From a virus, in the IMG/VR virus record IMGVR_UViG_3300045988_141150: a stretch of DNA of 40,350 nucleotides. One strand, written 5' to 3'. A program made the translations under genes and the position numbers. Below, piece by piece: positions 2,258 to 35,393 of the stretch. Position 1 is the first letter of the stretch, and each line of letters starts with the position of its first letter. The notes beneath the pieces were generated by a model. It saw only the letters and a program-made list of their open reading frames with translations, ran no database searches and was not told where the DNA came from.

Positions 2258-2662
2258 TCATACAAGCAACTCCTCCAACTTTGTCTTAAATACACTATCA
2301 AGAATGTCATCAGCAAGCGTTCTCTTACTGAGATCCACATCTTCTGATCCAGAAGCAACCCCATTAACGAGGGCGCTTGTGTCCGAAGTCGTCTGCGGCT
2401 GCTTCTCAAACGCGGGCTTCACATATCTATATTCATTCTCGATATATTCTATCTTACCTTGCTCAGTAATTCGACCAAGAACCTTACCATTAAAAACCAA
2501 CTTATTACAGTCATCCCAAATAAGATATGCGCCTTGCGTATTCTCCCTATTAAAAAACTCTTTCTTAGTAGTAGCAATTACATTCCAATTGCGGAAAACG
2601 CCTACCTTTTCTCCATTATTCTTTTTCAGTTCTTCAGTTGTAAATTTCATTTCAGTTTTCAA
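2258..2662 (-). CDS. Hypothetical protein of 134 aa.
   Basis: The ORF is in the track and has no in-frame TAG. Confidence 0.5.
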   Translation of the reverse strand: MKTEMKFTTEELKKNNGEKVGVFRNWNVIATTKKEFFNRENTQGAYLIWDDCNKLVFNGKVLGRITEQGKIEYIENEYRYVKPAFEKQPQTTSDTSALVNGVASGSEDVDLSKRTLADDILDSVFKTKLEELLV

Positions 2663-3139
2663 ATCCTTACTTTCATTTCATTTTTTGAATAGTTCCCCGA
2701 GACAAATACCCCTGCTTTACGCAGAAATAACCTACCCCGGTATTCCATTTTAAAATTATATTTCTTTCTTTTATTATTTATATTATAATATATTATTTAT
2801 TATAAATCAAATAAACTCCTAAAGAAATGGATTTTCTTCTATTGATTCAGGTCTATCCTCATATTTCATTTTAATTGGTTTTGTACTATCTGGAACAACA
2901 AAATAAATAGTATTATCTTTCATATATAAATCAGGTTTTATCATATTTGTTTTATCTATCATCTTATCAAACTATTCTTGCGTTCCTCTTACAAATCTTA
3001 CTATTGAAGGATTGCCTTTTCCGCCCCTTACTTCTTCATAATTATATTCCATTACTTTTTACTCCTTTTGCTCTCATTACTGCCCCTGAATTACCCAGCC
3101 GATATATATTAAATATTATCTATTATATATATATTAATA

Positions 3140-3382
3140 GGAACTTTTTGTTCCGAAAATATAGGCAATTCGGAACTAACGGTTCCAAACATAAGGGGCA
3201 TTTTGGAACTAACGGTTCCGCAGTCCCTAATAATTCATCACGTTTTAAATGAATGGAACTAACGGTTCCGAATTTAATGTTAAAATTCAAATTTGTCTTC
3301 TTTCGGAACTTTTTGTTCCACTTTACTATTATTAATTATCTATTTTTGAATAACAACCTATCCCTTCGGAACTTTTTGTTCC
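3140..3382. repeat. Array of six palindromes GGAAC-N4/5-GTTCC. GGAACTTTTTGTTCC occurs three times and GGAACTAACGGTTCC three times.
   Basis: Exact copies sit at 3140, 3172, 3205, 3255, 3305 and 3368. They lie in a 600-bp non-coding gap between two minus-strand genes. Confidence 0.8.
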
Positions 3383-3711
3383 AGAAAATCATTACAATTA
3401 TCATAAAAATCATATTTTCCTTCCGCGGTTTCGACTAAATAGTTATTATTCTTTAAATCATTTATACCAGCATCAATAGCCTTGCGGACTGCCCTTGCTT
3501 CACTCGCCTTTGAATAATCTTTTCCTAACCAATTGGCATAAGCGGTCGGATTCATAGTCCAAACAAAATTATTAGTATTACCAGCTAAATATAAATATAA
3601 TCTTAAACCATTCAATGTTAAACTCCCAGTAGCCTAACCCAACGTAGGAGTGTTTATTGAAGTAAAATTACCACTCTATAAAACTTCTTTATGAATCTTA
3701 AATAGGCTCAT
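3358..3711 (-). CDS. Hypothetical protein of 117 codons. It is readable only with TAG as sense, with two in-frame TAG.
   Basis: It extends track ORF 3358..3615 upstream through two in-frame CTA (minus-strand TAG) codons to an ATG at 3709..3711. Confidence 0.45.
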
Positions 3712-3887
3712 TATTTCTTGCCCATTAATTCATCCAGAGCCTAAACTAACTCCGGAGTCTTTTCATATATCCAACACATAAAGTTAGGCTTCCGCGGATT
3801 TGCGGTTGTTGTTATTGGATATATTCCTTTCTTTTCTAATTCTAAATATATTCTTAATGAATATATAATTTTATTGGCATTTGGCAT
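3711..3887 (-). CDS. Small hypothetical protein of 58 aa with one in-frame TAG.
   Basis: ATG follows an AAAGGAG RBS on the minus strand. Its TAA overlaps the downstream ATG. Confidence 0.4.
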
Positions 3888-3916
3888 ATTAGCGACTCCT
3901 TTAAGCAATTAAAATA

Positions 3917-4474
3917 TTATTCTAAATATTTAAATGGAGCCAATCTTGATACTTTTTTATTATGTTCCGATTGAAAAATATAATCTAATGGAAGTTGAAT
4001 TCCATCTTTAATCGGATAAGCATAAAATTCGAGACAATCTTTACGCTCTCTTAGGTATCCATGATGAACTAATAAGTCAAAATTAAATACAATATCTTCT
4101 ATATCTTTACAATACTAAATATCTGTATTTAAGATATCATTAAAATGAATATAATCTCCATCCTTTTTATTCATTACATAACACCATAACTCAAAGTTAA
4201 TATAATAAGCGAATGTGTATGTAAATAAATAAAGCGGAACTCCATTATATGCTTTATGTGAAGCCAAAGGCGGAATCTCTCTATTTATTTTAATAGGTTT
4301 AGTAAAATCTAATACTGCTCCTGTTTCATATAAATCATAATTATCAGGACTATTTTTTATAACTTGATAATGTTCCTTTTCAGCAATCTATTCAATATCT
4401 TTAACCGCTCTCATACTACCTTTCTTATAATAGTATTTGTCGTGGAAAAAAGTTATCAATTCCTTTTTAGTCAA
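3917..4474 (-). CDS. Hypothetical protein of 185 codons with two in-frame TAG and a TTG start.
   Basis: An AAAAGGAGGAGG RBS on the minus strand precedes a continuous frame that ends in TAA. The two in-frame TAG hide it from the standard-code ORF track. Confidence 0.45.
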
Positions 4475-4871
4475 TTTATAAGTCCTCCTCCTTTTCTTTT
4501 TAATTGTTCTATAATAAATAAAAATTTTTTTAATACTTTTAATTGCGTTTGCCCACAAATTTTTAAATATTTTTCTAAAAGTAATAATTTGTCTTACATT
4601 TTAATACAAAATGGTAAAAATTTTCTACAATTTTAACTAACGCGGTTTTCCCGTCTAATGTTCCTTCTATCCTAAGCATAGCGATCTCTAATATCTACAT
4701 AAGCGACTATGAAAAATTGCCTACAATTTTTACCTATTTTAATTACATTTAATATGTTTGCCCAAGCGCTTTTATTTTTTATTTAATTCAAAAAACATTT
4801 ATTGATTTTTATTAAATTTTAATATATAATATAAATATAAAATAAAGAAAAACTATTAAAGGTGATAAAAA

Positions 4872-5069
4872 ATGCTAGCTAAACTTATTGATAATCAAGG
4901 TCAAACTCATATCATCAATACGACCCATATTCATTCAATTTCCGTAAAGAATTCTGGGTCGGATAAACTTGTGATGGTTTTTTGGGACAATGAAACAAAA
5001 ACCGCGTATTATGTAAAACCCACTGAGTATAGCACTTTTATCAATTCTATTTTTAAGGAGGATAAGTAA
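4872..5069 (+). CDS. Hypothetical protein of 65 aa.
   Basis: The ORF is in the track. An AAAGGTGAT RBS lies upstream, and a family-A-like promoter lies at about 4795 to 4850. Confidence 0.55.
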   Translation: MLAKLIDNQGQTHIINTTHIHSISVKNSGSDKLVMVFWDNETKTAYYVKPTEYSTFINSIFKEDK

Positions 5070-5070
5070 T

Positions 5071-5409
5071 ATGTCTGTTGATTTTGGTTCTAAGCTCGTG
5101 TGTGGCTACAAAGTCTCTAAGAACCTTCTTGAGAACTATGATAATATGGCTGAGGCTATTGAACAGCTTACCGAAGAAGGTTATTGGCATCGCGCAAGCT
5201 GCTATGATAACGACGAAAATCCTATCTTCGGCTATCTTCTCGGTAAGTCTTCCGCGGGCGAGGCCGTCCGCATCGACAACATCTTCATCGCTCCGCAGGA
5301 GTATTATCGCCTTAACGACACAATGAAGGAAGCTTACGCAAAGTTTCTCAAAATCCCCATCGAAAGCCTTGATGATCCCGAGATTTTTCTAATCTCTACA
5401 ATTTCTTAA
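5071..5409 (+). CDS. Hypothetical protein of 112 aa.
   Basis: The ORF is in the track. An AAGGAGGA RBS lies upstream. It is tightly packed with its neighbours. Confidence 0.6.
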   Translation: MSVDFGSKLVCGYKVSKNLLENYDNMAEAIEQLTEEGYWHRASCYDNDENPIFGYLLGKSSAGEAVRIDNIFIAPQEYYRLNDTMKEAYAKFLKIPIESLDDPEIFLISTIS

Positions 5410-5425
5410 AGAAAGGAAAATAAAT

Positions 5426-5680
5426 ATGAAACAATGCCCTGTTTATTATGAAGCACGCTATTGGGACGATTCTGATAAAATGGATAGACTTACGTGCGGT
5501 TTTATCTTCGCGGAAACCCTCGCAGAAGCCGGCCGTTGGGCAGAAGAATATTTCGAAGATCTTATCACTATCGCATTTACCCCTCTTGACGAGGGCCCTT
5601 TGCGCGTCAATCATGATCTTGCTAACAAGATTCTAAAATTTGACGGCGAAGATGCTCCATATTCTGCTAAAGTGCTATGA
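5426..5680 (+). CDS. Hypothetical protein of 84 aa.
   Basis: The ORF is in the track, with an AAAGGAAA RBS. Confidence 0.55.
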   Translation: MKQCPVYYEARYWDDSDKMDRLTCGFIFAETLAEAGRWAEEYFEDLITIAFTPLDEGPLRVNHDLANKILKFDGEDAPYSAKVL

Positions 5681-6120
5681 TGACTTTCCTATGTAAGAAT
5701 TGCGCTTACCTTTTGTCTAATGGTGCTTGTCCAATAGCAGGATATTCACCCGACCCCAATCAACCCGTTTGTAATAGCTTTAGCGACACTAAGTATACTT
5801 GTAAAGTTTGTCATAACCCAATTTTCCATAAGCAAATGGTTATTGACGACAAAGGAAATACTTATTGCGATAAATGTTTCGCAAGACTTAGCACATGCGC
5901 TAATTGTGAACAAAATGTGAACTGCGCATTTAATGATTCTCCCGACACGCCGAAAATGGTCCAAAAGCGAGAAATCGTTGGAAATATGCAAGCCGTCACG
6001 AATGTCCGTAATCCCGACATTGTCGAAAAGACGTGTAAGAAAGGTTGTTCTTGTTTTAACGAAGAAAATGGCTGTATGAGAGATTTCAATTGTTGCGATA
6101 AACTTAACCCTATTCTTTAA
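5677..6120 (+). CDS. Cys-rich zinc-ribbon protein of 147 aa.
   Basis: It has multiple CxxC pairs, such as CKNCAY, CKVCHNP, CDKC and CANC. Its start overlaps the upstream stop. Confidence 0.55.
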   Translation: MMTFLCKNCAYLLSNGACPIAGYSPDPNQPVCNSFSDTKYTCKVCHNPIFHKQMVIDDKGNTYCDKCFARLSTCANCEQNVNCAFNDSPDTPKMVQKREIVGNMQAVTNVRNPDIVEKTCKKGCSCFNEENGCMRDFNCCDKLNPIL

Positions 6121-6134
6121 AGGAGTTTTTAAAT

Positions 6135-6734
6135 ATGTTTATCTTCTTCTTGAAAACGCTGATGGGCGGATTTGTTCTACCGGCCTTAATTATTTTTCTA
6201 ATTTTCGCCATTCATTCTGCTTATCGTAGTTATAGGTATTATAGCACTCTTTCCGATCCTAAGGCCAAGCATTTCCGCAATTGGTCTCATCGCGACCGCG
6301 TTGATATTCTCCGTCAAATTATTCCTGCCTTTTGGATCGGCGTTTGTCTTTACCTCGCGGTAGGCATGTTTGGCGGAGTTATGATGTCTTCGGCTGTTGA
6401 TGACTATTCTAAGTATGATTATACGATTACGGAAGCCCAAGAGCTAACAAGTATAGATAACGATGGCAATATCTATACTTACCGTGCCTTTGAAGGTGAG
6501 ACTGTTTATTACACTTATCTTACACTCAGCACTGATGGCATTATGAGCACTGAGACCCATCCCGTGAATGACACAGTAATTGTTTACTCTAATCAGGTTC
6601 CGCACATTGAAAAGCGTCTCCCACGTTATGGCGATTGGAGAGAGTGGTTCTTTGTCTGCTCTAAGTCAACGCGAGCTTACCTTTATATTCCAGAAGGAAC
6701 AGATATAGCGAAAGATTATATTGTGGAGAAATAA
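6135..6734 (+). CDS. Membrane protein of 199 aa.
   Basis: The N-terminus is hydrophobic and a second TM segment is present. The ORF is in the track. Confidence 0.55.
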   Translation: MFIFFLKTLMGGFVLPALIIFLIFAIHSAYRSYRYYSTLSDPKAKHFRNWSHRDRVDILRQIIPAFWIGVCLYLAVGMFGGVMMSSAVDDYSKYDYTITEAQELTSIDNDGNIYTYRAFEGETVYYTYLTLSTDGIMSTETHPVNDTVIVYSNQVPHIEKRLPRYGDWREWFFVCSKSTRAYLYIPEGTDIAKDYIVEK

Positions 6735-11065: not shown

Positions 11066-11382
11066 TGGTTGTAATGATTTATGCTTATGAAAGCGTCTAT
11101 TGCGGACTCCACGGTATAAATACTGGCGGTGTCTTCGAGGTTGATAGTGCCGCAGAAGCTGATGATATTGGCAAAGGAATGGCTTATGATGTAATTGATA
11201 GTTATAGTCATGCCTTTGAGGATTACGACCTGGAAGAAGTAGAGGAAGGCATTGAATGGGAAGTCTGGCCCGTCCGCGATAACACTGGACTTTCCGTCAG
11301 TGAGCTTGACTGCGAGTTTGCGAACCTCGGTAAAAGTCTCTTTATTGATGAGTATTGTTGTGTAGATATCCACAATACTTAA
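11065..11382 (+). CDS. Hypothetical acidic protein of 105 aa.
   Basis: The ORF is in the track. Confidence 0.55.
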   Translation: MVVMIYAYESVYCGLHGINTGGVFEVDSAAEADDIGKGMAYDVIDSYSHAFEDYDLEEVEEGIEWEVWPVRDNTGLSVSELDCEFANLGKSLFIDEYCCVDIHNT

Positions 11383-18140: not shown

Positions 18141-19745
18141 ATGGCTAATTTATTTGAACTCCTTTCCAAAGAAGATTGCGAAAAGATTGAATGGTATATC
18201 CGTAATTTTGCGGGCCTCGGTGGAGATAGTTCCGATATGAAGGCGTCTCTCGACTACATTCTCCGCTTTTGGGCTTATAATAAGCAGAGTCTTTATAAAA
18301 TGTTGGGAGATAATCTTATCATTTCTCGTAAGGTAAGTTATTCTCGCACTTATGAAGATATGAGTGATGATTTTTATGATTATTTCGGTAGAAATGGTGA
18401 TGGATATGAATTCCGAAATACCTTTAATAATAAGGTAAGAGATCTTTATCTTAAAACAGACATCTCTGATACTCAGTATTTTAATCTGGTAAATCTTTTG
18501 GATGTTGAGCCTTTAATGTCTAACATTTATGATGGGGAATCTTTTAAATTCACTTATAACAATAAAACTCTTATGATTAATAAGGGTATGAAGCTTAGTA
18601 AGATGCTTGGTAAGATGAGTGATATCTTGGAGATTGACCGCGATATCTATGAAAAGTTCCGTATCGCTCATTCTCAGTTCCTTAATCAGAAAAATATCTC
18701 TGGTGAACTCTGTCTTTCTATTCATCCTCTTGACTATATCACTATGAGTGATAATGATTGCGGTTGGGATTCTTGTATGAGATGGCAGAGTGGTGGTGGT
18801 GAATATCGTCAGGGAACCGTTGAGATGATGAATTCTCCCATTATCCTCGAAGCTTACCTTAAATCTGATAAGGATATGGAACTTTGGTATAAGAACGGTC
18901 AGCCTGTTATGTGGAATAGTAAGCGTTGGCGCGAGCTTTTCATTGTAGATAAAAGCCTTATTCTTGGCATTAAGGGTTATCCTTATTGTAATGAAAATCT
19001 TGAAAGCATTTGTCTTGCTTGGATCAAAAAGCTCGCTGAACAGAATCTTGGTTTTGGCCCTTATACCAAGTATTTAAATCAGATTCATAATTACAGTAAT
19101 AACATTATTGGCGAGCTTGACAGAAATATTTATTTCAATCTTGATACCAATTTCATGTATAATGATATCTACTCAGAGCATAATGCTTACGTTTCCACTA
19201 AAATTCCTACGGATGAAAGCGTTAATCTTAACTACTCGGGTGAATCTGAGTGCATGTGTTGCGGAGAACTTCTTGATGATTCTCTTCTCGATGATAGAGA
19301 GAATAACGCGGAAATGACCATTTGCCCAAGTTGTTCGGGCACAGTAAAGTGCGATAAGTGTGGCGATATTGTTTATGTCGATGACACTTATAATGTCGAT
19401 GGAAGAACTTACTGCGCTTATTGTTATGACGAAAACACAGAAGTTTGTCCTTGTTGCGGAGTCCGCAAAGACTATGATGACATGAAGCAAATCCGCCTTC
19501 GATTCCAGAAGAAGCCAGTTGGGTTCTATACGGATATTTGTTGGGATTGCTGTGAGGATAAAAAAGTAAAAACCTTCTTCAGTGGTGAAATTGAAGAAGA
19601 TAGAGATGGTTGGCGCTCCAATTATTATGTCGATGGAGAAACTCTCACTAAAAAGGGCAGAGACCTCTTTAATATTAGTGAAAAGGAATTTATTTCTTGG
19701 GCTATTGGCACCAACCCAAATCAAAGACCTTCTTTGATTTTTTAA
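18141..19745 (+). CDS. Large protein of 534 aa with a C-terminal cluster of CxxC zinc ribbons. It is a paralogue of the gene at 22274..23704.
   Basis: The shared motif is GELCLSIHPLDYITMSDNDCGWDSCM against GTLCFSVHPLDFLSVSENTYNWRSCH. It is followed by WNSKRWRELF against WNSKKWRMLL. Confidence 0.6.
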   Translation: MANLFELLSKEDCEKIEWYIRNFAGLGGDSSDMKASLDYILRFWAYNKQSLYKMLGDNLIISRKVSYSRTYEDMSDDFYDYFGRNGDGYEFRNTFNNKVRDLYLKTDISDTQYFNLVNLLDVEPLMSNIYDGESFKFTYNNKTLMINKGMKLSKMLGKMSDILEIDRDIYEKFRIAHSQFLNQKNISGELCLSIHPLDYITMSDNDCGWDSCMRWQSGGGEYRQGTVEMMNSPIILEAYLKSDKDMELWYKNGQPVMWNSKRWRELFIVDKSLILGIKGYPYCNENLESICLAWIKKLAEQNLGFGPYTKYLNQIHNYSNNIIGELDRNIYFNLDTNFMYNDIYSEHNAYVSTKIPTDESVNLNYSGESECMCCGELLDDSLLDDRENNAEMTICPSCSGTVKCDKCGDIVYVDDTYNVDGRTYCAYCYDENTEVCPCCGVRKDYDDMKQIRLRFQKKPVGFYTDICWDCCEDKKVKTFFSGEIEEDRDGWRSNYYVDGETLTKKGRDLFNISEKEFISWAIGTNPNQRPSLIF

Positions 19746-21296: not shown

Positions 21297-22403
21297 GTGA
21301 GAGGTTTTAAAACTAATGAACTTTGGTTATTTGAATATCTGGTTCGCTCGACACAAGATGAGTTAAGAGAATATGTTGCCGATGTATTGAAAGCTAAATA
21401 TACTGAAGTAGTTATTACTAAAGAGTATGTTTGTGCGGTTGGCGATATTCCTATTGCTTTAGTAGCTCATCTTGATACTGTGTTTGAGAAACCGGTCAAA
21501 GATTTATATTATGATACAAGAAAAAATGTGCTTTGGTCGCCCGATGGTCTTGGCGCAGATGATAGAGCAGGAGTATATGCGATTCTTCATATTTTGAGAA
21601 ATACATCTTTGCGTCCTTCTATTATTTTTACCACTGATGAAGAAATTGGTGGATTGGGCGCCGAAGCATTAGTATTACAATATTTTGAGTGTCCATTTCC
21701 CAATCTGAAATATATTATTCAGTTGGATAGACAAGGCACAAATGATTGTGTGTTTTATGACCTTTACAATCCTAAATTCATTGATTACATTGAATCTTTT
21801 GGATTTGTAGAGGATTTTGGCACGTTTAGTGATATTAGTGTTTTATGTCCTGAATGGAAAATTTGTGGCGTGAATCTTTCAGTAGGTTATAAAAATGAAC
21901 ATAACCGTATTGAAACATTAAATGCGGGTGCTCTTTTTGATACGATTAATAAGGTAATCCGCATGCTCAAAGAGAAAGATATTCCTAATTTTGAGTATTA
22001 TCGTAATTATCATAGTATTTGGTTCGATAATATTTGTAAGAATTTTCCAACTGATGGCGATGGATTCTACGTTCATTGTAGAGGATGCGGTCAGTTATTT
22101 AGTGAATATGAAACATTTCCAGTAAAGGGATTAGATGGACATACATGTTTTTATTGCCCTGATTGTATTCCCAGTAATGTTGAATGGTGTGCGGAGTGTG
22201 AAGAGGCATTTGAGATTGACCCTGCGAACCCACACAGCGAGTATTGTAAAGATTGTATTGGAGGATTAGTCAAATGTCATATGACTTCGACATCGAAAGC
22301 ATTAAAGAACAGTTCAACAAAGTCATCAGTTACTCCCAAGGAATCAGTAATCCAAAAACAGAAGAACTATTCGAAAGATTCCTCGAAGCCAAAAAAGACT
22401 TAA
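21297..22403 (+). CDS. M20/M28-like Zn metallopeptidase domain followed by a C-terminal zinc ribbon. The true 3' end is uncertain.
   Basis: The motifs HLDTV, DGLGADDRAGV and TTDEEIGGLGA are present, with CxxC pairs at the C-terminus. The last 130 nt overlap the next gene in another frame. Confidence 0.5.
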   Translation: MRGFKTNELWLFEYLVRSTQDELREYVADVLKAKYTEVVITKEYVCAVGDIPIALVAHLDTVFEKPVKDLYYDTRKNVLWSPDGLGADDRAGVYAILHILRNTSLRPSIIFTTDEEIGGLGAEALVLQYFECPFPNLKYIIQLDRQGTNDCVFYDLYNPKFIDYIESFGFVEDFGTFSDISVLCPEWKICGVNLSVGYKNEHNRIETLNAGALFDTINKVIRMLKEKDIPNFEYYRNYHSIWFDNICKNFPTDGDGFYVHCRGCGQLFSEYETFPVKGLDGHTCFYCPDCIPSNVEWCAECEEAFEIDPANPHSEYCKDCIGGLVKCHMTSTSKALKNSSTKSSVTPKESVIQKQKNYSKDSSKPKKT

Positions 22404-23704
22404 TTAAATTTTTTCACGGTCATTTAATTTATGAATGGCCGGAAAAGGTATCTTTTTCCTTAGATGATAAAACTAAAGAGCATCGTCTTGAAGAGTTTCT
22501 TGAAACAATTAATTATACTTATAATAATGAAGACTTAAAGGATTTTATTTCAGTAAATAAAGAAGGATTCTTTAACAATACAGTTATAGATACTTATTTC
22601 TATAAAGATAAAAAGATTCCAAGAGGAATGAAATTAGTTAAGGCTTTTAAGTATTTTGAAGAGAATCCACGCTCTTTGGAAGATATTCAGAATTACGCAA
22701 GTCGTATTATCCAAGAGGACAAGATTGAGGGAACATTATGTTTCTCAGTTCATCCTTTGGATTTTTTAAGCGTAAGTGAAAATACTTATAATTGGCGCTC
22801 TTGCCATGCACTTGACGGCGAATATAGAGCAGGAAATTTATCTTACATGGTAGATAAAAGCACTTTTATTTGTTATTTGCGCGGAGCAGAGAATCAGAAA
22901 CTTCCGCATTTCCCTGAAGATGTTCTTTGGAATTCTAAGAAATGGCGTATGCTTCTTTACATGGAAGATAAGCGACGTGGTTTAATGGCTGGTCGTCAAT
23001 ATCCTTTTATGACAACCAATGCTTTAATTAAAATTAAAGATATTATCAATACTTTTGATAAGACTTTTCAGTTGCGTGAATGGGTAGATGGAGGTATTAA
23101 TACTGTTTCTAATAGGATGAGCACTACTTCTTTTGATGAAGAAACTATTGGATTATCCGAGACATGGATTCCTATTTTATCTCGTTTATATCCTATTAGT
23201 GATATTGTTGAAGATATTGGCGAGCATACTCTTCAATATAATGATTTGCTTTATTCTTCTTGCTATTTACCCATTTATAGTTTAAAATTGTATTATTATC
23301 CATTAGAGACTGATCTTCCTCATTGGTCTATTGGTGGCGATGTCCCTTGTTTACAATGCGGTAAAACTATTATCGAAAGTGGAGAATATATGCGATGCGG
23401 AGACTGTGAATTCAATTATGGAGTAAACGAAGATGATAATTACGGTTATTGCGCTTGTTGCGGTTCTCGTATAATCCTTGATGAAGCAAATTCCGTAGGC
23501 GATGAGAATGAATTGGTTTGCGATAGTTGTGCAGATACTTATTGTAAACGATGCGAATGTTGTAATAATTTATATTATACAGAAGATATTCACTATCATA
23601 AAGGAACTGATATGTATTTATGTCCTTGGTGTTTTAGAGATGCTGATGAAGAAAAAGTTAATAATTTTAGGTCTTTAAAAGACTTTATACATAATTTTAG
23701 TTAA
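22274..23704 (+). CDS. Large protein with C-terminal zinc ribbons. It is a paralogue of the gene at 18141..19745.
   Basis: ATG at 22274 follows a GGAGGATTAGTC RBS, within track ORF 22253..23704. Confidence 0.6.
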   Translation: MSYDFDIESIKEQFNKVISYSQGISNPKTEELFERFLEAKKDLIKFFHGHLIYEWPEKVSFSLDDKTKEHRLEEFLETINYTYNNEDLKDFISVNKEGFFNNTVIDTYFYKDKKIPRGMKLVKAFKYFEENPRSLEDIQNYASRIIQEDKIEGTLCFSVHPLDFLSVSENTYNWRSCHALDGEYRAGNLSYMVDKSTFICYLRGAENQKLPHFPEDVLWNSKKWRMLLYMEDKRRGLMAGRQYPFMTTNALIKIKDIINTFDKTFQLREWVDGGINTVSNRMSTTSFDEETIGLSETWIPILSRLYPISDIVEDIGEHTLQYNDLLYSSCYLPIYSLKLYYYPLETDLPHWSIGGDVPCLQCGKTIIESGEYMRCGDCEFNYGVNEDDNYGYCACCGSRIILDEANSVGDENELVCDSCADTYCKRCECCNNLYYTEDIHYHKGTDMYLCPWCFRDADEEKVNNFRSLKDFIHNFS

Positions 23705-24194: not shown

Positions 24195-24611
24195 ATGACT
24201 GAATTAAATAATACCTTTAAGGTAGTTGTTACTGACAATGAAGGCAAAGAGACTGAAAGTATTATAACTGGTCCTATTGTTTTTTCTACAAGTATTAATG
24301 GAGAAACTAGCGGAATTAAATATACTTTTAGACTTCGTGAATATTCAAAAGGCTATGATGTTGAAACTTTAAGTTTACCTAAAGTTTCTGCTCAGCTTAT
24401 TGGAAATTTTGATCGTTCAAAGGTTGCTAAAATTGGTGTATATTATTTAGCTGTTTCTAATGATTATAGAAAAGTTTTTGAAAAAAATGTTGCCAATATT
24501 GCTGAAATGGTATTCGAATATAATAATGATATTGGAGATAAGTCATATGCTAATAGTTATAACACTATAGCAGAGCTTAATATAACTTATACTCCCGAGG
24601 CTGTAAATTAA
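24195..24611 (+). CDS. Hypothetical protein of 138 aa, the first gene of the late block. It contains no TAG.
   Basis: The ORF is in the track, with a TAGGAGGAATTTT RBS. Confidence 0.55.
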   Translation: MTELNNTFKVVVTDNEGKETESIITGPIVFSTSINGETSGIKYTFRLREYSKGYDVETLSLPKVSAQLIGNFDRSKVAKIGVYYLAVSNDYRKVFEKNVANIAEMVFEYNNDIGDKSYANSYNTIAELNITYTPEAVN

Positions 24612-24624
24612 GGAGAGAATATAA

Positions 24625-25347
24625 ATGGCTGGTAGTCGTATTTCATGGAGCGATGTTCGCGCTCTATATGATACTTTAAATACTGCTTAGACTCGTTTTT
24701 CTCAATCTCGCACGGCTGCTCCCTCAAATGAGGGGCGTCGTACGAGAGAAAGTGACATTACTACTTTAAAAAATGAAATTGAAAATTTAAGAAATGTTTC
24801 TTATGTAGGAACTTAGGCTACTTTTTCTAATTTTACCGCTCCAAGAGCTAATGAACTTATGAAACGAGTCCCTTTAGAGGAAATTAGAAGTAAACTTGAT
24901 ACTATAAATGGCATTTGCGCCTATGATGGAGCGAATTATACAAGCAATAATGGTTATCGTGGTGCTAACTATACAAGTAATAATAGTCAACGTTCTTCTT
25001 ATTATTCAAGTAATGATGCTCAACGTTCTTCTTATTATTCAAGTAATAATGCTCAACGTGCTTCAGATTATTCAAGTAATAATGCTCAACGTTCTTCAGA
25101 TTATTCAAGTAATAATGCTCAACGTTCTTCAAATTATTCAAGTAACTATACTTATTATACTGCTAATTATTCAAGTAATAATGGTCATAGATCTGCTAAC
25201 TATAGTAGTAATAATGGTAATAGATCTTCTAACTATAGTAGTAATAATTCTCAACGTTCTTCAAATTATTCAAGTAATTATACTTATAGAAGTGCTTATG
25301 CTTCTAGAAGTTCAAATCGTAGTGGCGCTGGTAGAGTACGCTCTTAA
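24625..25347 (+). CDS. Repeat protein of 240 codons with two in-frame TAG. About 12 tandem 11-residue repeats of the form (A/S)xY(S/T)SNNxQRS follow a 100-residue N-terminal region. It is a candidate multi-core RiPP precursor.
   Basis: ATG follows an AAGGAGAGAAT RBS. The frame is continuous with track ORF 24859..25347 through TAG codons at 24688 and 24814. The underlying nucleotides form a 33-nt tandem repeat. Confidence 0.55.
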
Positions 25348-25378
25348 TTTTTTGAGAAAAAGGAGTTTTATAATATAA

Positions 25379-26878
25379 ATGTTTAAAGAAATGGATATTA
25401 GAGCAATATCTTTAGTTTCTTCATGTGGATGTAATTTACATTGTAAATATTGTCTTATTGAGAATACTTTAAATAATTGCTCTGCAAATTTACAACATGA
25501 AACTATTAAAGCTTTAAATGATGGTACTTTTTTAAATAATGTAAAAGGTATTTTTAAACGTTTAAATCTTGATAGATATAAAATAGAATGTTTTACTTTA
25601 TGGGGTCAAGAGCCTACATTGACATTACATCTTCTTACTGATCATTTGGAAGATTGGTTTAATTATTTCCCAAATATTAATCATATTGACTATTCTACTA
25701 ATGGGATGGATTTTCCTGAAAGAACTGTTAATTTTATTAAAAAGGTTGATGAATTAGCAAATAATGAACTTGCTTTAGAAGTTCAATTCTCTTATGATGG
25801 CACTTACTCAACCAATAATATTAGAAATGCTAATAATGAAAAAATCTTTGAGACTGCTTCAACTGTAATTAAAGAATTAAATAAAATTAAATTTCATAAT
25901 GTAAATGTATCTATTCAATTACATGGTGTTCTTTCTGGAGCTTTAATTCATGAACTTAATACAACTCAAAAAGTTCATGATTATTATAAAGATTTAGATA
26001 ATTTTGGATTTGAATTAGCTGATATTAATCTTAATTAGAGAGTTGAAGTAAATAGTAGTGTATCTATTTGCCCTGAGAATCCAAGAGATGGATCAGTTGA
26101 TGAACGTATTGAATATGAGTCTTTCTTACAACGCATTGTTAATATTGATGTAAGTGATTTTCATGACCCACATCTTCCAGTTAGTATTATTATTGGTTAT
26201 CGTCATCTTTATGAAGAAGTATTTTCTGATTTACATGGATTTACTGGAGAAGATCGTCCAATTACGCCCCAAGAATTAATGCGATTAGTTATGGAAGGAA
26301 ATCAAGAAGCAATTACTGTAGCTTCAAGAAATAATTTTTGTAGTGGTAATTTTAATGAATTAAAATTACTTTATGATGGTACTATGATGTCTTGTCAAAA
26401 CTTTATGTTTGATCTTGATGGTAATAATGTTAAAGATGATGGTACTATTGGAGCACAATTGAGAAAAGACACTCGTCGCACTAAAACTGATTGCATTAAT
26501 CTTTTAACTGATAGTGAAGAAGATATTAATAAAGTTATATATAAATATAATATGTATAAAACACATTCCTTCCCATTTATGTTTCAAGCAACTGTAAATA
26601 CTTTACAAATGCTTAATGAATGCAATCAATTAAATTCTATTTACAAGTATAATCCTGATAAATTATTAAGATTGGCATTAATTGCAACAAAAATTGATGC
26701 TTGTACTTATAATAATTTTATTTCTTCTGGTAGCGCGTTGTTAAGAAGTGTAGGCACTTTAAGAACTCAATCAGCACTATTTATGTATGTAGATAGAGAA
26801 AATAATTTACTTAAACCCGAAGAAGAATGGTTCCGAAATACTGAAAATATGAATGAATATAGAGGAGAAAGTAATTAA
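25379..26878 (+). CDS. Radical SAM enzyme of about 499 codons with one in-frame TAG at 26036.
   Basis: It carries CGCNLHCKYC, a CxxxCxxC motif. Track ORFs 25379..26038 and 26279..26878 are in the same frame, joined through a TAG with no TAA or TGA between them. Confidence 0.6.
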
Positions 26879-28281
26879 TGAATATTAGTGAAGGTTGTCA
26901 ATTAGATAATAATAAATATTTTGAAAAATTTATAGATAATTATATTTTTAATAGGGATCACCAAGAGGAAGGATACTGGATTAATGGAGAGTCTTTTGAG
27001 CTTATTATAAGACCCGAATGTAATCAACAATGTGAATATTGTTATGTTGCACGGTATGGAGATAAACTCTATCCGATGGAGAAACGCGCCGATAAGGAAA
27101 CTCTTGTTCATAATACAGATATTATTTTGAATTATATCTTTAAAGAAAGAAAAGTTTTATTTCATGAAATGGAACTTTTTGCTGGAGATTTATTTTATGA
27201 TGATATTGGATTTGAAATTCTCGAATTAATGTTTAAATATTATAAAGAATTATTTGATGAACATCCAAATATTTTTAATTTCCATCCTCGTATTGTAATT
27301 CCTAATAATTTTAGTTTTGCTATTGATGATAAAAAAGCTAAAAAAATGGAAGAGCTTTTAGCTAAATTTAAAACTATCAATATGGAAATAAGCCTTTCTT
27401 GTTCTATAGATGGACCTTATAATAGTGTGCGCGAGCGCGATAAAGATGATAGTTATTATACTAAAATTCTTGAATTCCTTCAAAGAAATCCTTGTGGTAT
27501 TCATCCTATGATTTCTCCAAGTAATATTGAGAGTGCTATTAAGAATTTTGATTGGTGGGACGAACAATATGAAAAGTATAATCTTGCTGGTGAAGACATT
27601 CATGATTTTCAACCTATGTATTTGGAAGTCCGCAATGATGAATGGACTGATGAGAAATTAGATCATTATCTTGAATTTTTAACTCATATGCTTGAAGTAA
27701 GATTTCATAAAAATGGTGAGTCTGTAGATAAATTGGCAAGACATATTTTCTTAGGAGATGGAAAAGAAGGTTCTTTACCTTGTCTTGGTAATTATGACCC
27801 TATTGGATTAACTTCTACTTGGAATAGTGAAGAATATACTTGCGCGATTTCGCATTAGACTTGTCTTTATGTGGCGAGTTTTGAATTTGCGCCTTGCCAT
27901 AGAACTTCTTATCCTCAGTTTCTTGGTGGACGTCTTGATGTAAAAGATGACAAAGTAGTTGGTATTACTGCAATTAATCCTACTGTGTATAGTGTAATTA
28001 AAACGAATAATACACATATGAATATTGGTTGTTTAACTTGTCCTTTTGATCCTTATTGTTTAAAAGGATGTTTAGGCGCTCAGTATGAAGCCACAGGTGA
28101 TTTATTTGTTCCCGGTGAAAGCGTTTGTAAATTACATAAAACACATTTAACTTTTTTAGTAAAGACTTATTGTGAGTTGGGATTAACTAAAATTGCAGTT
28201 GAAAAAAATTATTTTAAGAGTGAAGCAGATAAAGAAAAATGGCTTACTTTATGTCGTAAATTGGGGTATTATAATGATTGA
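26878..28281 (+). CDS. Radical SAM/SPASM-domain enzyme of about 467 codons with one in-frame TAG at 27856.
   Basis: It has an N-terminal CNQQCEYC radical SAM motif. Its C-terminal Cys cluster CLTCPFDPYCLKGCLG...VCKLH has the SPASM pattern. Track ORFs 26878..27858 and 27871..28281 are in the same frame. Confidence 0.6.
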
Positions 28282-28576
28282 AGAAATGAAAAGACAAATT
28301 CAACACTTAGATGATACTTTTGATCCTTCTAATGTTGGAGATTATAAAGATTTATTATATGTAATCTATTTAAATTGGATTGAAAATAATGGAGAAAACG
28401 AAGAAGTCAATTCTCTTATTAACAATTTAATTAAAAGAATTATTGATTCTAGCATTAATGATAATAATAATTGTGATAATTGTAATGAAGATGAAGATCC
28501 TAATATGAGTGAAGATTATTTAATTTATCGCCATTTCTTAGGATATAAAATTCCTGGCTATTGGCGTAATCATTAA
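28274..28576 (+). CDS. Small acidic protein of 100 aa. It could be an accessory protein or a precursor.
   Basis: ATG lies in the frame of track ORF 28193..28576 and overlaps the upstream TGA. Confidence 0.45.
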   Translation: MIEEMKRQIQHLDDTFDPSNVGDYKDLLYVIYLNWIENNGENEEVNSLINNLIKRIIDSSINDNNNCDNCNEDEDPNMSEDYLIYRHFLGYKIPGYWRNH

Positions 28577-29157
28577 TGTTAATTAATTTATATAATGCTC
28601 GTCAAACTTTATTAAGATCAGTAAAGTTTGACGAGCGTGAATGCGATGATATTGTTTTTGGATTAAATTTTCCAAAAGAAATTACTTTTTGCAAAATTGT
28701 AAATAATTCAAATGATATAGAATATTCTTCATTAAATTATCTATATAGTCAATTAAAAGATTTAGAATATAAAGATATAAAAATTATTGAATTAGTTTTT
28801 AATCAAAAACAAAAATTTACGTTTGAATCTACAGTAAAATCTATTTTTTATAGAACAATGTTATATTCAAGTTAGGGACAATTGGAATTTAAATTATATT
28901 TAACTTTACGATTTGAAGAAGAACATCCAATTATTTACGATAAAGAAGAATAGATTTTAAAGTGTGACAAAAATTGTAAACAGTTAAATAGAAAAATACA
29001 TCGTTGTGAATTTTTTCATAGTGATTTAAATGATATAAATGAAATTTGTACGGAATGTTTTTTGTAGGAAAGAGATAACCAAATAAAAGAATTGGTTAAT
29101 TATAATAGAGATATTATAAATGTTTTGGAGAATAAATATGGAAATAGATAGAACTAA
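28576..29157 (+). CDS. Hypothetical Cys-containing protein of about 193 codons with four in-frame TAG.
   Basis: It extends track ORF 28576..28875 through TAG codons to a TAA at about 29155. Confidence 0.4.
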
Positions 29158-31216
29158 AAATTATCAAGGGATTCCTCCTTATACTAATCCAATATGGAAA
29201 TCGGTTTATGATGGTGTTAGTTTAGAAATGCATATTGTAGATCATTGTAATCTTAATTGCGCAGGATGTAATCATTTTTCCCCTTTAGCAGAACCTTGGT
29301 ATATTGATTTAGATGATTTCCGTGATCAGATTACTTTTGCTTATAAAAAAATTCCAAATATAAAACTTTTTATGATTTTAGGTGGAGAACCTACTTTGCA
29401 TCCAAAATTATTTGAAATATGTTAGATTGCTAGAGAAGTTTTCCCAAAAAATAAAGTAGAAATTAAAATATTAAGCAATGGGTGTCATTTACAAGATGCT
29501 TTTAAACATGAGAAAGAATATCAAGATATGGGAGTAATATTTGATATTACTACTTATGGGAAATATACTGATCATAAAGCGGTAGAATATTTAGACAGTC
29601 ATGGTTTAGGTTTTAATCATAATTCAAGATTATTTATGCGACAATAGCTTGTAAATGAAGCAGGAACTACTGATATAAATGAAGTATATTTTCATAAATG
29701 CCCGCATTAGTTACCTTGTTTTACTTTAAAAAATTATAAAATTTATATATGTCCTTTTTCTGCACATTTGGATATTTATAGAAAAAAATATAATGTAAAT
29801 ATTCCAGAAGATGAAAGTGATTATTTGCGATTAGAGGATATAAATAATTTAGATGATTTACATAATTTTATTTTTAAGCCTAAAAATATTTGTAGATATT
29901 GCGATGGAACTATGTCTAAAGCCTCTTGGATTTGGCACAAATATTATGATACAAAATCGGAATTTATAGTTCCAATGGAAGATGCTTATTTTAGAGATTA
30001 TGATTTTTATTTAAAATTAGTTAATGATAAAGAAAATTTTTTAGAAAATTATTAGTTATTTAAAGAAAACAGATGCCCAATTGAATTTAGATATAATACT
30101 TATTATTTAAAAAAATGTTTTACTCGTTTTATTGATGGAAAAATGGATATTATAATACCTTATTATAATATGAATGATTAGCAAATTATTAATTTGTATA
30201 ATAATTTATCTACCCAAACAATTATAAAAGATTGTTGTGTATATTTTATTAGCGACCATTCTTTCTATGATAAAAAACTTATTGAGATATTTGATGAAGC
30301 GAGTTTTCCTTGTTTCTTTTTTAAGAATTTAAAACGAAAAGGACCAGGTCTAACTCGTAATTTAGGATTAGAATATTCTTTTAATAAATATGTGTTATTT
30401 TGGGATTCTGATGATTTATTCCCAAATGATAATGTTTTAGAAATTTTATATAATTCAATAAAACATAATGAGAAAGATTTTGGAGTATTTAAAATAGCTA
30501 ATACTGATAAATCAGTTGAAAAGATTAATTTAATTCTTAAAAGAGATTTTCTTAATAAAAATAATATAAAATATTCAAAATTTTTCTTTGGAGAAGACAG
30601 TATTTTCTTGGATAGATGTGATATTTATGGTGAATCTTATGAGTTAGAAGACTAGAATTTAGGTCTTTATATAACTTAGTTAGAAGACAATCCTAATTGT
30701 TTATCTCATTCTAATTCTAACATGGTAATTACAGCATATATTAATAAAATAATTGTATTTTTTGCTAATTTTATTGATGTTTTGAAATTAGAAAATATTG
30801 ATGAAAATCGTAAACAAAGTACTTTAAGACGGAATCTTTATAGAATTATTAATGAAATAAAATCAATAAGTGATTTAGATTCTTCTTTTTATGGATATGA
30901 AAATAATTATTTTTTAGAAAAAATTCTTCTTTTAATTTATTATATTTTATATACTATGTATAATTTATATAGTAACAAAGAAGATTTTAATAATATTCCC
31001 AATTTGTGTAATTTAGATAAACAAATTATAGAAGATATCAAAAGTTAGAAAATTAAATTTAGTCTTCTAAGAGGAGAATGTATAACTAATTTTGATGATA
31101 TTAAAAATGAAATTTATCCATTGTTAAATTATCTTAACAATGAATTATGCTATGTGCCTACTTATGAATGGTTTCTGAATTATTTAGATGGAAAAGGAGA
31201 GAGTATTTATGATTGA
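29138..31216 (+). CDS. Continuous 692-codon frame with 9 in-frame TAG and no TAA or TGA. It has an N-terminal radical SAM domain (CNLNCAGCNH, GGEPTLHP and a C-terminal CRYCDG) and a central GT2 glycosyltransferase domain (IIIPYYN...GPGLTRNLG...FWDSDD). It is one fusion protein or two to three cistrons.
   Basis: Track ORFs 29120..29425, 29768..30055, 30194..30655 and 30722..31048 all share one frame and are separated only by TAG. The frame ends at a TGA at 31214. Confidence 0.5.
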
Positions 31217-31391
31217 AACTTATCAAGAATATAAAGAAAAAGTTTATTTTCTTCTAAATAATTTTTTAGATTTTACTAAAGGAGATAAACCTTATTTATT
31301 TAATATGCCTTCAAAATTAGGCAATCTTCCTAATCTAAATGAATATTTATATTTTTGTTTTAATAAATCTGATGCAGGAGAAAATAAATGA
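31209..31391 (+). CDS. Small protein of 60 aa.
   Basis: ATG follows an AAAGGAGAGAG RBS, in the frame of track ORF 31188..31391. It ends in TGA. Confidence 0.45.
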   Translation: MIETYQEYKEKVYFLLNNFLDFTKGDKPYLFNMPSKLGNLPNLNEYLYFCFNKSDAGENK

Positions 31392-31930
31392 GGTTTACTG
31401 ATTATCATTTTGGATAGGCAGAGTCTGACTTTTGGACTTTATTAAAAGAATTTCTATTAAGGTTTGATCCCAATAGTATTTATGATTTTTGGATTTTATT
31501 TATTTATTTTTAGTTAGGTATTATTAGAAAAGATAGATTTATCATTTATTAGGTATAGTATATTTTAAAAGAAAAAATAGATTTTGAAGAAATTAATGAA
31601 GTAAATTTTAATACAATTATTCCAATAGAAAAGATAAATTTATCTAGTTTAAAAGATTGTATTTGGATAAGCTATTGGATTTGTTAGTATAATTATTAGA
31701 ATGATGAAAATTTAATTTTAATTTATAGTGAGAAAATATTTAATAATCTTACTAATATTTTTGAGCCGGATATTGTTATAGATATTCCAATAGTGTAGTA
31801 GAGTAATAAAATATGTAAAATGTGCGGTTTAGAGTCTAAATCTAATGGATAGAATATACCATTTTTTAAAATAAATGATAATAAATATTTATGTCCTAAT
31901 TGTTATTATTTATTAAAATTAAATGAATAA
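31388..31930 (+). CDS. Hypothetical protein of 180 codons with a C-terminal CxxC...CxxC zinc ribbon. It has about 10 in-frame TAG.
   Basis: ATG overlaps the upstream TGA. The frame is free of TAA and TGA for 543 nt in a region of about 25% GC. It is invisible to the standard-code track. Confidence 0.4.
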
Positions 31931-32023
31931 TTATTAAAACCTACTTTTATAGTAGGTTTTAATTGATTTTTAATAAAAAATAATGTATTATAATTATAAG
32001 ATAAATGAAAAGGGTGTGTTTAT

Positions 32024-33808
32024 GTGAATAATTATAATCAACATTATAAAGAAATAAGTCCTATTGAGACTGTTAATAATATTAAAAATTTTTTAGAAGG
32101 ACGCGGATTTACTTGTGTTGAGGAAGCTTTACGACAAGAACAATCAACTACTTGGAGTCTTGTATTAAATCTTGAATACAAAGGACATTTTGTGCTAAAA
32201 ACTTATGGCAAAGGTGTTACAAAAGAATTCGCCAGAGCTTCTGGTTATGCGGAAATGTATGAGCGTTTTTGTAATGGAATGCACTATCTTTGTAATTCTT
32301 TTCTTTGTGCGGAAAAAATTGAATTAAATAGAAAAAATTATGGTTATTCTTTGTTTAAAAATGAAAAGCCTTTAAGTTATAAAGAGGCACTTGGAGGAGA
32401 AGATACTCTTTTATATAAACTTTTTGATCGTTTGAATAAGAAAGATAATGGTTTATTAGAGGATTATTTTAAAACTATTTATAATAATGAATTTTTTGGA
32501 ATACCATTTAAAGGAGTCAACATTAATAAAACTTTATATATGGATCCTCGTCTTCTTCAACGTTATCATGGTAGTTCGGGAATGGCAGCCGGCAATACTT
32601 TTAATGAAGCCTTAAATCAAGGTTTATCTGAAATTTTCGAGCATTATGTTTTAAGTAATTTTTATATTGATATTGATAATAAAGATTTTTATTTTTATGA
32701 TACAGATAGTATTAAAGATGAAAAATTAAAAAATATTATTAGTGCGATTAAATCTCATAATAATAACTTTTATATTATTGATATGTCAAGAACTTATAAT
32801 GTGCCTGTTATGGTAGCAATTTTGATTAATAAATATAGTGGTACTGTAGCTATTAATTTTGGTGCTTTCCCTGTATTTGAAATTGCAGTTGAGCGAGTTT
32901 GTACTGAAATGTATCAAAATTGTTTTTCTTTTGATACAAGAAAAACTTCAGTTGTATCTCCGTATTATTCTTTAGATAAAGAAGATATGGTTATAGATGG
33001 CGGTTCTTGTATTACAAATCTTAATACTTTTCCTGAGAGTTTATTCTTGAATAAGAAATTTGTAAATACTATTAATAAAGATGTATTTTTATCTTATACT
33101 GATAAAAATTACTCTAATGATGAAATCTTAGAGCATAATAAAAAGATTGCTACTAATATTGGAGCAGATATTTATTGTGCTGATGTATCTTTAATTGATA
33201 CCGTATCTGCGATTAGTATTTATGTTGATAATCTTGACGGGCTATGGAAATCTTTCTTTGATAGATGCCAAGGAGTTAAAGAAACTGGAGAAGCAATTAC
33301 TATAACTAAAAATAAACATTTGGCCATTAAAAACTATTTAAATAATAAAGATAAAGTATATGATGTAATTAAATATTGTCTTGATTATTATAATATTACT
33401 TTTGACAAAATTGTAGATAGATTTTGTGGTTTACTTACTCATGGAGATCAATTAGTTGCTTATAATAATAAAAATATATTATTAACACCTAATGAGATGT
33501 TTGTTAAAAACCTTTATATGGATGCAACAGGATATTTATTAGAAGATGAAGGATTTTCTTTAGATATTTCAGTTAGTTGTTTTTATACTTATTATAAAAA
33601 ATATTTAACTTTATTAGCATATGTTCACAGTAGAAAATATACTAAAGAAGATATGATTAAAATTTTCAAAGAATTTGATTATACTTTTACTGATGAAGAT
33701 TTTAAACATATTACGGATAGAAAATATTTAGTAGAAAAATGTATTTTAGAGCCTATGTATAATACATTTAGAAGCAATGATTTTAAAGAAATGATTAAAA
33801 ATTATTAA
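32024..33808 (+). CDS. YcaO-domain protein of 594 aa.
   Basis: HGSSGMAAGNTFNEALNQGLSEIFEHY matches the YcaO ATP-binding signature, which has the form xGSNGLAsGNTxxEAxxQGLxExxER. The ORF is in the track and has no TAG. Confidence 0.65.
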   Translation: MNNYNQHYKEISPIETVNNIKNFLEGRGFTCVEEALRQEQSTTWSLVLNLEYKGHFVLKTYGKGVTKEFARASGYAEMYERFCNGMHYLCNSFLCAEKIELNRKNYGYSLFKNEKPLSYKEALGGEDTLLYKLFDRLNKKDNGLLEDYFKTIYNNEFFGIPFKGVNINKTLYMDPRLLQRYHGSSGMAAGNTFNEALNQGLSEIFEHYVLSNFYIDIDNKDFYFYDTDSIKDEKLKNIISAIKSHNNNFYIIDMSRTYNVPVMVAILINKYSGTVAINFGAFPVFEIAVERVCTEMYQNCFSFDTRKTSVVSPYYSLDKEDMVIDGGSCITNLNTFPESLFLNKKFVNTINKDVFLSYTDKNYSNDEILEHNKKIATNIGADIYCADVSLIDTVSAISIYVDNLDGLWKSFFDRCQGVKETGEAITITKNKHLAIKNYLNNKDKVYDVIKYCLDYYNITFDKIVDRFCGLLTHGDQLVAYNNKNILLTPNEMFVKNLYMDATGYLLEDEGFSLDISVSCFYTYYKKYLTLLAYVHSRKYTKEDMIKIFKEFDYTFTDEDFKHITDRKYLVEKCILEPMYNTFRSNDFKEMIKNY

Positions 33809-33819
33809 TAGGAGATTAT

Positions 33820-34698: not shown

Positions 34699-34702
34699 TT
34701 TT

Positions 34703-34741
34703 AACTCCTTACTATTTTATTTAGTAAGGAGTTTTTTTTTT
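34703..34741 (+). terminator. Rho-independent terminator.
   Basis: Hairpin AACTCCTTACTA-N7-TAGTAAGGAGTT followed by a run of ten T. Confidence 0.75.
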
Positions 34742-34822
34742 ATTTAACCAGATTAAATTAATGACTTCTTATAAATTTTTAAATTTTATAGAAATAATAA
34801 AATTTATAAGGAGGTCATTTAA

Positions 34823-35377: not shown

Positions 35378-35393
35378 TAGAGGAGGAATTTAA

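Follow-up and report, generated by a model that had tools for sequence, protein, structure and literature searches.

In the IMG/VR virus record IMGVR_UViG_3300045988_141150, a DNA stretch of 40,350 nucleotides (hereafter, the window), three consecutive minus-strand genes near the left end, here named A, B, and C, contain in-frame TAG codons. They occupy 98% of positions 3280-4474 and are followed on their left by an array of palindromic sites and two further genes, D and E (Table 1). This study concerns the reality of these genes and the probable function of the module that they form with the array. The three open reading frames (ORFs) had been pointed out in an initial annotation made from the letters alone, and they were found where it had placed them, with two TAGs, a ribosome-binding site (RBS), and a TAA stop for gene A and one TAG for gene B. 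It had also held that none of them appears in the ORF list called with the standard genetic code; fragments of the genes are in fact listed there (3741..3908, 4115..4267, and 4388..4558). Its third gene was built on the standard-code ORF 3358..3615, which starts at TTG and ends in TAG (3360-3358). The proposed extension of this ORF through two upstream TAGs to an ATG holds, but the RBS described with it does not, since no clear Shine-Dalgarno sequence was found in the start region of gene C. The end at 3358 has to be corrected as well, because 3358 belongs to a TAG and the 143-residue ORF runs on to a TAA; the gene C homologues keep the tail beyond this TAG, including a terminal F-x-F. The ATG of gene C overlaps the TAA of gene B by one base. 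This overlap and the lack of a clear Shine-Dalgarno sequence make translational coupling of B and C likely. For gene A, the N-terminal extension that comes with the TTG start is supported by its homologues.

Related loci are designated by L numbers. L001 lies in the interior of a 189,106-bp contig in the European Nucleotide Archive (ENA; ERZ28617132, SAYO22-1_SAMEA14102080_METAG-scaffold_40) that runs past the left end of the window. L001 and L002 are close relatives, with 87-95% DNA identity to the window, and all the window TAGs are kept in both. Other relatives were found on contigs of 180-196 kb. Because the match to L001 is internal to the 189,106-bp contig, the window is to be regarded, on this comparison, as a piece of a large phage-like element, uncultured and ~190 kb long, and not as a 40-kb genome with arms. 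The module layout was compared in L001, L003, L004, L005, L009, and L012, which makes seven sequences with the window, and the ratio of non-synonymous to synonymous substitution rates (dN/dS) was calculated against L001, which is ~95% identical. The A-B-C gene order is retained in distant relatives. The recoded block is not limited to three genes: gene D, with two TAGs, had been missed. Both TAGs are also present in its L001 orthologue, and family scans with gene D gave no match. Orthologues of gene E are present in L001, L003, L004, L005, and L012.

Are these real genes, or are the TAGs nonsense mutations in decayed genes? The second answer would agree with the standard code breaking the genes into short ORFs and with the failure to find a suppressor tRNA (see below). 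Nevertheless, it can hardly be right. The minus strand has a TAA/TGA-free run of 227 codons at its longest; when the region was simulated 2000 times with a first-order Markov model, the longest run had a mean of 71 and a maximum of 161 codons. Genes A to D together have nine in-frame TAGs and no in-frame TAA or TGA, so that all nine interruptions are TAG, and none is a frameshift. Database homologues number 19 for gene A (E 1e-29 to 1e-105) and 11 for gene C, all aligning without a break across the TAGs, and the gene B orthologues likewise align across its TAG position. Between gene A and its L001 orthologue, 21 synonymous and five non-synonymous changes were counted, and 20 of the 26 substituted bases lie at third positions (dN/dS 0.05). 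By segment, there are nine synonymous and no non-synonymous changes in codons 30-118, and eight and three in codons 120-185. For A, B, and C together, the counts are 30 and 13 (dN/dS 0.09), and the values across A and C range from 0.05 to 0.17, segments downstream of TAGs included. The TAGs are shared with L001 while synonymous sites diverge, and L001 has gained an extra TAG by a TCG to TAG change with the frame intact. The decayed-gene explanation was rejected as contradicted by the dN/dS values, the TAG-only interruptions, and the absence of TAG stops in the neighbouring genes.

In the relatives, the number of TAGs varies from gene to gene. All three genes are free of TAG in L003, and only C contains it in L004, twice. 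A single TAG is present in A of L005 to L008. L009 carries a single one in A plus four in C, and L012 has two each in B and C. Such gain and loss at non-conserved positions is, as judged from these alignments, the behaviour of a low-frequency sense codon and unlike that of nonsense mutations. The 29 TAG-free plus-strand genes at 4.8-23.7 kb end in TAA (26) or TGA (three) and never in TAG, and they contain no TAG in 5022 codons as against 116 off-frame TAGs. TAG is also unused as a stop in the gene calls of L001, L005, and L009. Since the 29 TAG-free genes neither end in nor contain TAG, the gene calls indicate that TAG serves as a terminator nowhere in the element. By this comparative evidence, A, B, and C are real genes that are read through in-frame TAG.

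Codon usage agrees with this. The left genes have a GC content at third codon positions (GC3) of 0.21, carry 18 TAGs per 1000 codons, and lack CAG. Their relative synonymous codon usage correlates at r = 0.79 with that of a TAG-rich plus-strand block further right (GC3 0.13), versus r = 0.175 with the TAG-free gene array (GC3 0.38), and in the relatives the TAG-containing genes form low-GC3 islands too. The proposal that recoding extends to this minus-strand block is borne out by the homologues that span the TAGs and by the codon usage shared with the TAG-rich block. Separately, the gene set of the window, L001, L005, and L009 was seen to be two-part: TAG-free genes have a GC3 of ~0.3-0.7 and 12.9 CAG per 1000 codons, and TAG-containing genes a GC3 of ~0.1-0.27 and 0-1.5 CAG per 1000. 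In L001, two extra low-GC3 genes with four TAGs each lie inside the TAG-free gene array (5361-6290), with no counterpart in the window.

Which amino acid is inserted at TAG? In the LGQA motif of gene C, the near-invariant Q column that corresponds to TAG codon 26 has CAA in L003 and TAG in the window, L001, L009, and L012. The remaining TAG columns are variable in the relatives, mostly E, K, N, or D, and also M, Y, and some hydrophobic residues. Judging from these columns, glutamine (genetic code 15) is the most likely residue; the support is thin, yet consistent. Translation of TAG as glutamine was shown by proteomics in crAss-like phages (PMC9523058). Two points count against this side of the interpretation. 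Several TAG columns have hydrophobic residues in the relatives, and glutamine is thus unproven. In addition, a search of the window and nine related loci (~100 kb) for a tRNA with the anticodon CUA found none. The window is only ~20% of the ~190-kb element; the remaining ~150 kb, which the search did not cover, may encode a CUA suppressor tRNA.

As a separate observation, an odd tRNA-like gene adjoins tRNA-Trp(CCA) on the plus strand (38208-38278). It scores 37.5 bits with the Rfam tRNA model, above the gathering score, and has a six-nucleotide anticodon loop (CUUUAA), a weak D-stem, and 30% GC. ARAGORN gives no anticodon. In the Rfam alignment, the loop is C32 U33 U34 U35 A36 A37, so the anticodon would be UUA, that of an ochre/amber-type suppressor. 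Its fold is no better than that of shuffled sequence (z = -0.22). It could be such a suppressor or, equally, a decayed tRNA.

Since A, B, and C all carry in-frame TAGs, synthesis of their full-length proteins requires active amber suppression in the infected cell. It is conceivable, though rather doubtful, that the amber codons gate the synthesis of A, B, and C and that TAG-118 of gene C sets the ratio of a short to a long form. This codon lies two codons past the first EQKVPK repeat of the protein and a few codons from the TAA ends of gene C in L005 and L012. If the idea were true, origin firing at this locus, or a switch in the mode of replication, would depend on the change of code, and the short form and the long form, with its conserved C-terminal F-x-F, would differ in their dependence on suppression.

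A practical consequence is that standard-code pipelines miss these genes. In L012 (JAZMBO010000086.1, assembly GCA_052829825.1), the orthologues of B and C, with two TAGs each, fall in a stretch (3900-4700) without gene calls, while the TAG-free gene A was called; this gap apparently reflects standard-code annotation. The element would need code 15 throughout, and gene C the corrected end given above.

What does gene C encode? The product is a predicted winged-helix DNA-binding protein with a predicted-disordered tail that contains two EQKVPK repeats and the F-x-F end. With a profile of the C family, 249 representative proteins were retrieved at E<=1e-3, long ones among them at E 1e-5 to 1e-11. 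Those of greater length (244-423 aa) match Pfam HTH_36 above the cut-off and DnaD_N, Phage_rep_O, and NCBIfam phage_O_Nterm (TIGR01610) below threshold only. They also match PHROGs 270, 678, and 186 at 1e-6 to 1e-11, which are named 'replication initiation protein', 'replication initiation O-like', and 'DnaD-like helicase loader', respectively. This chain of homologues suggests, by transitive homology, that gene C belongs to the phage O-like/DnaD-like initiator lineage. One distant homologue, P0070 (locus L011), lies in a temperate-phage context with integrase and RuvC genes. A DUF5659 gene is directly upstream of it, which is the same pairing as that of B and C, and five 23-bp iterons (GTGTACAAAAAGGACAC) lie inside its own gene, just past the helix-turn-helix (HTH) domain. 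Peptide repeats at this post-HTH position are common in the C family. In the gene C product, residues 105-143 have a predicted local distance difference test score (pLDDT) below 50, and the protein ends within the array. The AlphaFold model of the whole protein (pLDDT 61) was too weak for its fold search to count.

The palindromes, GGAAC-N5-GTTCC, have the spacer TTTTT in three of the six sites and TAACG in the other three. By chance, the whole window should contain 0.46 matches with at most one mismatch, and the observed total was not equalled in any shuffle. In L001, L003, L004, L005, L009, and L012, a comparable array of five to eight sites likewise begins within the 3′ end of gene C. The seven sequences have proteins of only 40-55% identity, and in each of them TATTAATATATATA comes directly after the last site. 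The AT-rich stretch opened by TATTAATATATATA is a candidate DNA-unwinding element or gene D promoter. Another feature, seen in several relatives, is a hairpin of 12-15 bp with a CTTCG loop after the AT-rich run that adjoins the last site (L003, ~1600-1640; L005, ~11210-11250; L009, ~11260-11290; L012, ~4620-4660). Its stem sequence differs by lineage while the pairing is kept, and the window and L001 seem to be without it. A terminator, a priming signal, and an RNA element are all possible roles for this hairpin.

Table 1. Genes and sequence features of the leftward block and its control region in the window.
Feature	Position	Strand	Description
Gene A	4474..3917	-	185 aa; TTG start at 4474; TAA stop at 3919-3917
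Gene A TAGs	4390-4388 (codon 29), 4117-4115 (codon 120)	-	In frame
Gene A Shine-Dalgarno sequence AAAAGGAGGAGG	4495-4484	-	Seven bases before the TTG start; kept in L001
Gene B	3887..3711	-	58 aa; ATG start; RBS AAGGAG; TAA stop at 3713-3711
Gene B TAG	3743-3741 (codon 49)	-	In frame
Gene C	3711..3280	-	143 aa; ATG start at 3711; TAA stop at 3282-3280
Gene C TAGs	3678-3676, 3636-3634, 3360-3358, 3342-3340 (codons 12, 26, 118, 124)	-	In frame
Gene D	3052..2807	-	81 aa; two in-frame TAGs; downstream of the palindrome array; outside the interval of the initial annotation
Gene E	~2650..2258	-	~130 aa; no TAG; last conserved gene of the leftward block
Six perfect GGAAC-N5-GTTCC palindromes	3140, 3172, 3205, 3255, 3305, 3368 (3140-3382)		15 bp each
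Forms of the palindromic site			GGAACAAAAAGTTCC, GGAACCGTTAGTTCC
Array sites inside gene C	3305, 3368	-	GGAACAAAAAGTTCC encodes the peptide EQKVP
AT-rich stretch	3100-3139		~38 nt with a single G; opens with TATTAATATATATA
Degenerate half-site remnant AGAACAATTAAAAAG	4510-4496	-	Window and L001 keep one half-site only
Promoter-like repeats	4536..4770	-	Three tandem units upstream of A: TGGGCA/TAGACG, 16-17 nt, TAAAAT/TAAAAA

The gene A product is predicted, from its modelled fold, to be a tandem winged-helix protein, and its best fold matches are winged-helix domains of replication proteins. No significant match was obtained in Pfam, PHROG, and NCBIfam scans or in a sequence search of the Protein Data Bank (PDB), and a fold search of BFVD gave only non-significant matches to 'HTH domain protein' entries. 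A resemblance of the N-terminus to HU (E 0.27) was dropped as non-significant and unsupported by the fold search. Orthologues of gene B are present in L001, L003, L004, L009, and L012. Gene B matches DUF5659 (PF18903) at E 0.052 and 13.9 bits and its orthologues at E 0.0038-0.015 and 15.6-17.5 bits, all below the Pfam gathering threshold of 23.6 bits. Because these sub-threshold matches recur and a DUF5659 gene lies upstream of a distant gene C homologue, a distant relationship of B to DUF5659 is plausible.

Since the repeated palindromic array beside a gene for a small DNA-binding protein resembles type Ib/II/III centromeres, and since an element of ~190 kb could be maintained as a plasmid, one might suppose that C is a centromere-binding protein of a plasmid-like prophage with a parS/parC-like array. 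This is very improbable. No ParA-, ParM-, or TubZ-type NTPase is present in the operon: A, B, D, and E have no NTPase family match, and in gene A the Walker motif and an NTPase fold are absent, with winged-helix matches only. The C homologues, moreover, point to initiators. For want of a partner NTPase in the operon, the partition explanation was rejected.

The intergenic region upstream of gene A contains the promoter-like repeats listed in Table 1, which may act as leftward promoters. The block GGGCA...GTATTAAAA is conserved upstream of A in the relatives, and so is the unit nearest to A. L003, L004, L005, L009, and L012 have a single perfect palindrome 30-45 nt upstream of gene A, just after this conserved promoter-like block; in the window and L001, only the half-site remains. 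The plus-strand promoter that had been noted near 4800 is present as a sigma-70-like TTGATT-17-TATAAT (4802-4830). I also considered whether the promoter-like motif GGGCAAAC upstream of A is shared with the TAG-rich plus-strand genes, as a link in their timing, and this was rejected. Exact copies occur only in the intergenic region upstream of A, and with one mismatch there are 17 matches against 15.3 expected, which is the chance level and allows no inference about timing.

Taken together, A, B, C, and the array form a replication-origin or DNA-binding control module rather than late structural genes; it seems on balance probable, and more probable than any other explanation, that this module is the replication origin of the element, with C as its short O-like origin-binding protein. 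In the proposed scheme, the element reads TAG as sense in part of its genes, which have low GC and include A to D, and never as a stop. A, B, and C would be transcribed leftward as one operon, starting in the divergent intergenic region, with A (tandem winged helix) and B (DUF5659-like) as co-expressed partners of C. C would most likely bind as a dimer to the GGAAC-N5-GTTCC palindromes, which begin in its own 3′ coding region, run for ~240 bp, and end at the AT-rich stretch. Such a layout is that of a phage origin embedded in or next to the initiator gene, as in lambda O and ori-lambda; ori-lambda lies within gene O (PMC6022878). In most relatives, the single site upstream of A would allow C to repress its own operon; this site is degenerate in the window lineage.

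The scheme has to be weighed against a second one, in which C would be a repressor or activator and the palindromes operators that control D and E and, in the relatives, the promoter of A-B-C. Placed at the divergent control region, the module could serve for immunity or as a switch. I consider this possible, though clearly less probable than the origin module. All the sites are palindromic, as would suit dimeric repressors; a stretch with TATAAT, lying directly upstream of gene D, adjoins the last site; the relatives have the one site just downstream of the promoter-like element upstream of A; and winged helices of the HTH_36, MarR, and TrmB types are common in regulators. On the other side, the distant homologues match phage initiator PHROGs and carry in-gene iterons, which are a hallmark of O-like initiators rather than of repressors, and six to eight sites over 240 bp ending at an AT-rich run exceed a typical operator. 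Initiators commonly repress their own genes as well. The site upstream of A is therefore neutral and does not separate the two explanations.

The following points weigh against the origin module. The palindromic sites beside promoters suit a repressor/operator array equally well. Direct searches of Pfam, PHROG, NCBIfam, and PDB with C gave no significant match, and the link of C to initiators is transitive, by way of long, distant homologues. Gene B alone also had no significant match in these four collections. Gene C has no C-terminal domain for recruiting a helicase loader or helicase such as O-like initiators have, which also counts in favour of a regulator; its long homologues do have a C-terminal region, and gene A might supply the missing recruiting role. 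Among the genes of the window, none was identified as coding for a helicase, primase, or polymerase. GC skew, tried as an origin marker, merely mirrors gene orientation and marks no origin. From the sequence alone, the origin and regulator explanations are not separable.

It had been suggested that the three genes may be late genes on the opposite strand, in keeping with a circular or permuted genome. In full, this would make them genes for structure, lysis, or assembly and part of a late block that wraps around such a genome. Their codon usage and TAG density are shared with the TAG-rich block on the plus strand, and the published model has genes with TAG expressed once the code has switched. 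Yet this proposal is improbable and found no support in the products, which are predicted winged-helix DNA-binding proteins beside an array of binding sites; no structural or lysis homology was seen in A-C, and timing cannot be read from sequence. The TAG-rich block (24600-35400, plus strand; GC 0.20-0.30) is itself not identified as structural. It encodes at least two radical-SAM-type proteins, a YcaO cyclodehydratase, a radical-SAM/glycosyltransferase-2 fusion with eight TAGs, and a protein with a sub-threshold likeness to U32 peptidases, and by these matches it looks like a peptide- or sugar-modification cluster rather than structural genes. It is followed on the plus strand (35394-38128) by genes for two paralogous glycine-rich proteins of 471 and 452 aa with seven and six in-frame TAGs, the first of which matches Pfam ALK_LTK_GRD at E 4e-35. 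No terminase was identified in the window.

The circular-genome argument fails because no terminal repeat was found in the window, a tandem repeat occupies its right end, and the match to the 189,106-bp contig is internal; the relatives continue leftward with other genes. The repeat (40231-40350) consists of 2.9 perfect copies of the 41-bp unit AGATTAGAAAGAAGTTGGAAGATCTTCTTAAAACTTCCATT, at which the assembly probably broke. Elsewhere on the plus strand, two paralogous proteins of 534 and 483 aa are encoded (18141-19745 and 22253-23704), with a HPLD[YF]..S...W.SC core and a Cys-rich C-terminus. Neither has a Pfam match, and the second matches phrog_18912, a PHROG with function unassigned.

How far is this element from known phages? 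A nucleotide search of the GenBank phages (INPHARED) in distant mode with region 3000-5000 and in near mode with 16-36 kb gave no match, and neither did tblastn of A and C against the same collection or a scan of IMG/VR and GTDB representative genomes with the A-family alignment. The strong Shine-Dalgarno sites suggest a Firmicutes-type host. What is defined here is a conserved module of an uncultured ~190-kb phage lineage without relatives in reference phage collections, made up of the GGAAC-N5-GTTCC sites, a short O-like binding protein, a tandem winged-helix partner, and a DUF5659-like protein. It adds a case in which amber recoding reaches a probable replication-origin operon, beyond structural and lysis genes. 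The novelty is limited to this lineage, its recoded probable initiator operon, and the conserved array of binding sites; published work already notes variability between clades, and the finding leaves the understanding of recoding unchanged.

Among known systems, the mixed-code phages offer the first comparison. In these phages, only part of the genes are recoded, the recoded stop is depleted as a terminator, and GC is low; the Jade and Sapphire clades (~200 kb) have several recoded modules scattered over the genome, and the use of the alternative code by replication genes is described as 'variable' (Borges et al., bioRxiv 10.1101/2021.08.26.457843). The present element resembles the mixed-code gut phages in having TAG in a subset of genes and never as a stop, in its several separate modules, and in the low GC of its recoded genes, and Jade and Sapphire are the nearest to its ~190 kb in size. 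It differs in that no CUA suppressor tRNA was found in the 40-kb window, in having no relatives in INPHARED, IMG/VR, or GTDB representatives, and in its recoded genes, which include a probable initiator operon together with a radical-SAM/YcaO cluster and none identified as structural or lytic.

The autorepressing iteron plasmid initiators of the RepA, RepE, and pi type are similar in having a winged-helix initiator, an array by an AT-rich region, and, as in the relatives of the window, a site at the promoter. Homology to them was not shown, their iterons are direct repeats bound by monomers whereas the sites here are palindromes, and plasmids have nothing that corresponds to the accessory genes A and B. 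With lambda O/ori-lambda and the O-like/DnaD-like initiators of Gram-positive phages, the differences are that C is short (143 aa) and its ORF ends in the array without a C-terminal loader-recruiting domain, that the sites are perfect palindromes of two spacer types, that the homology of C is transitive, and that gene C has four TAGs. Shared with them are a predicted N-terminal winged helix, the sites just after this domain, and the AT-rich stretch, and the homologue P0070 has the full arrangement.

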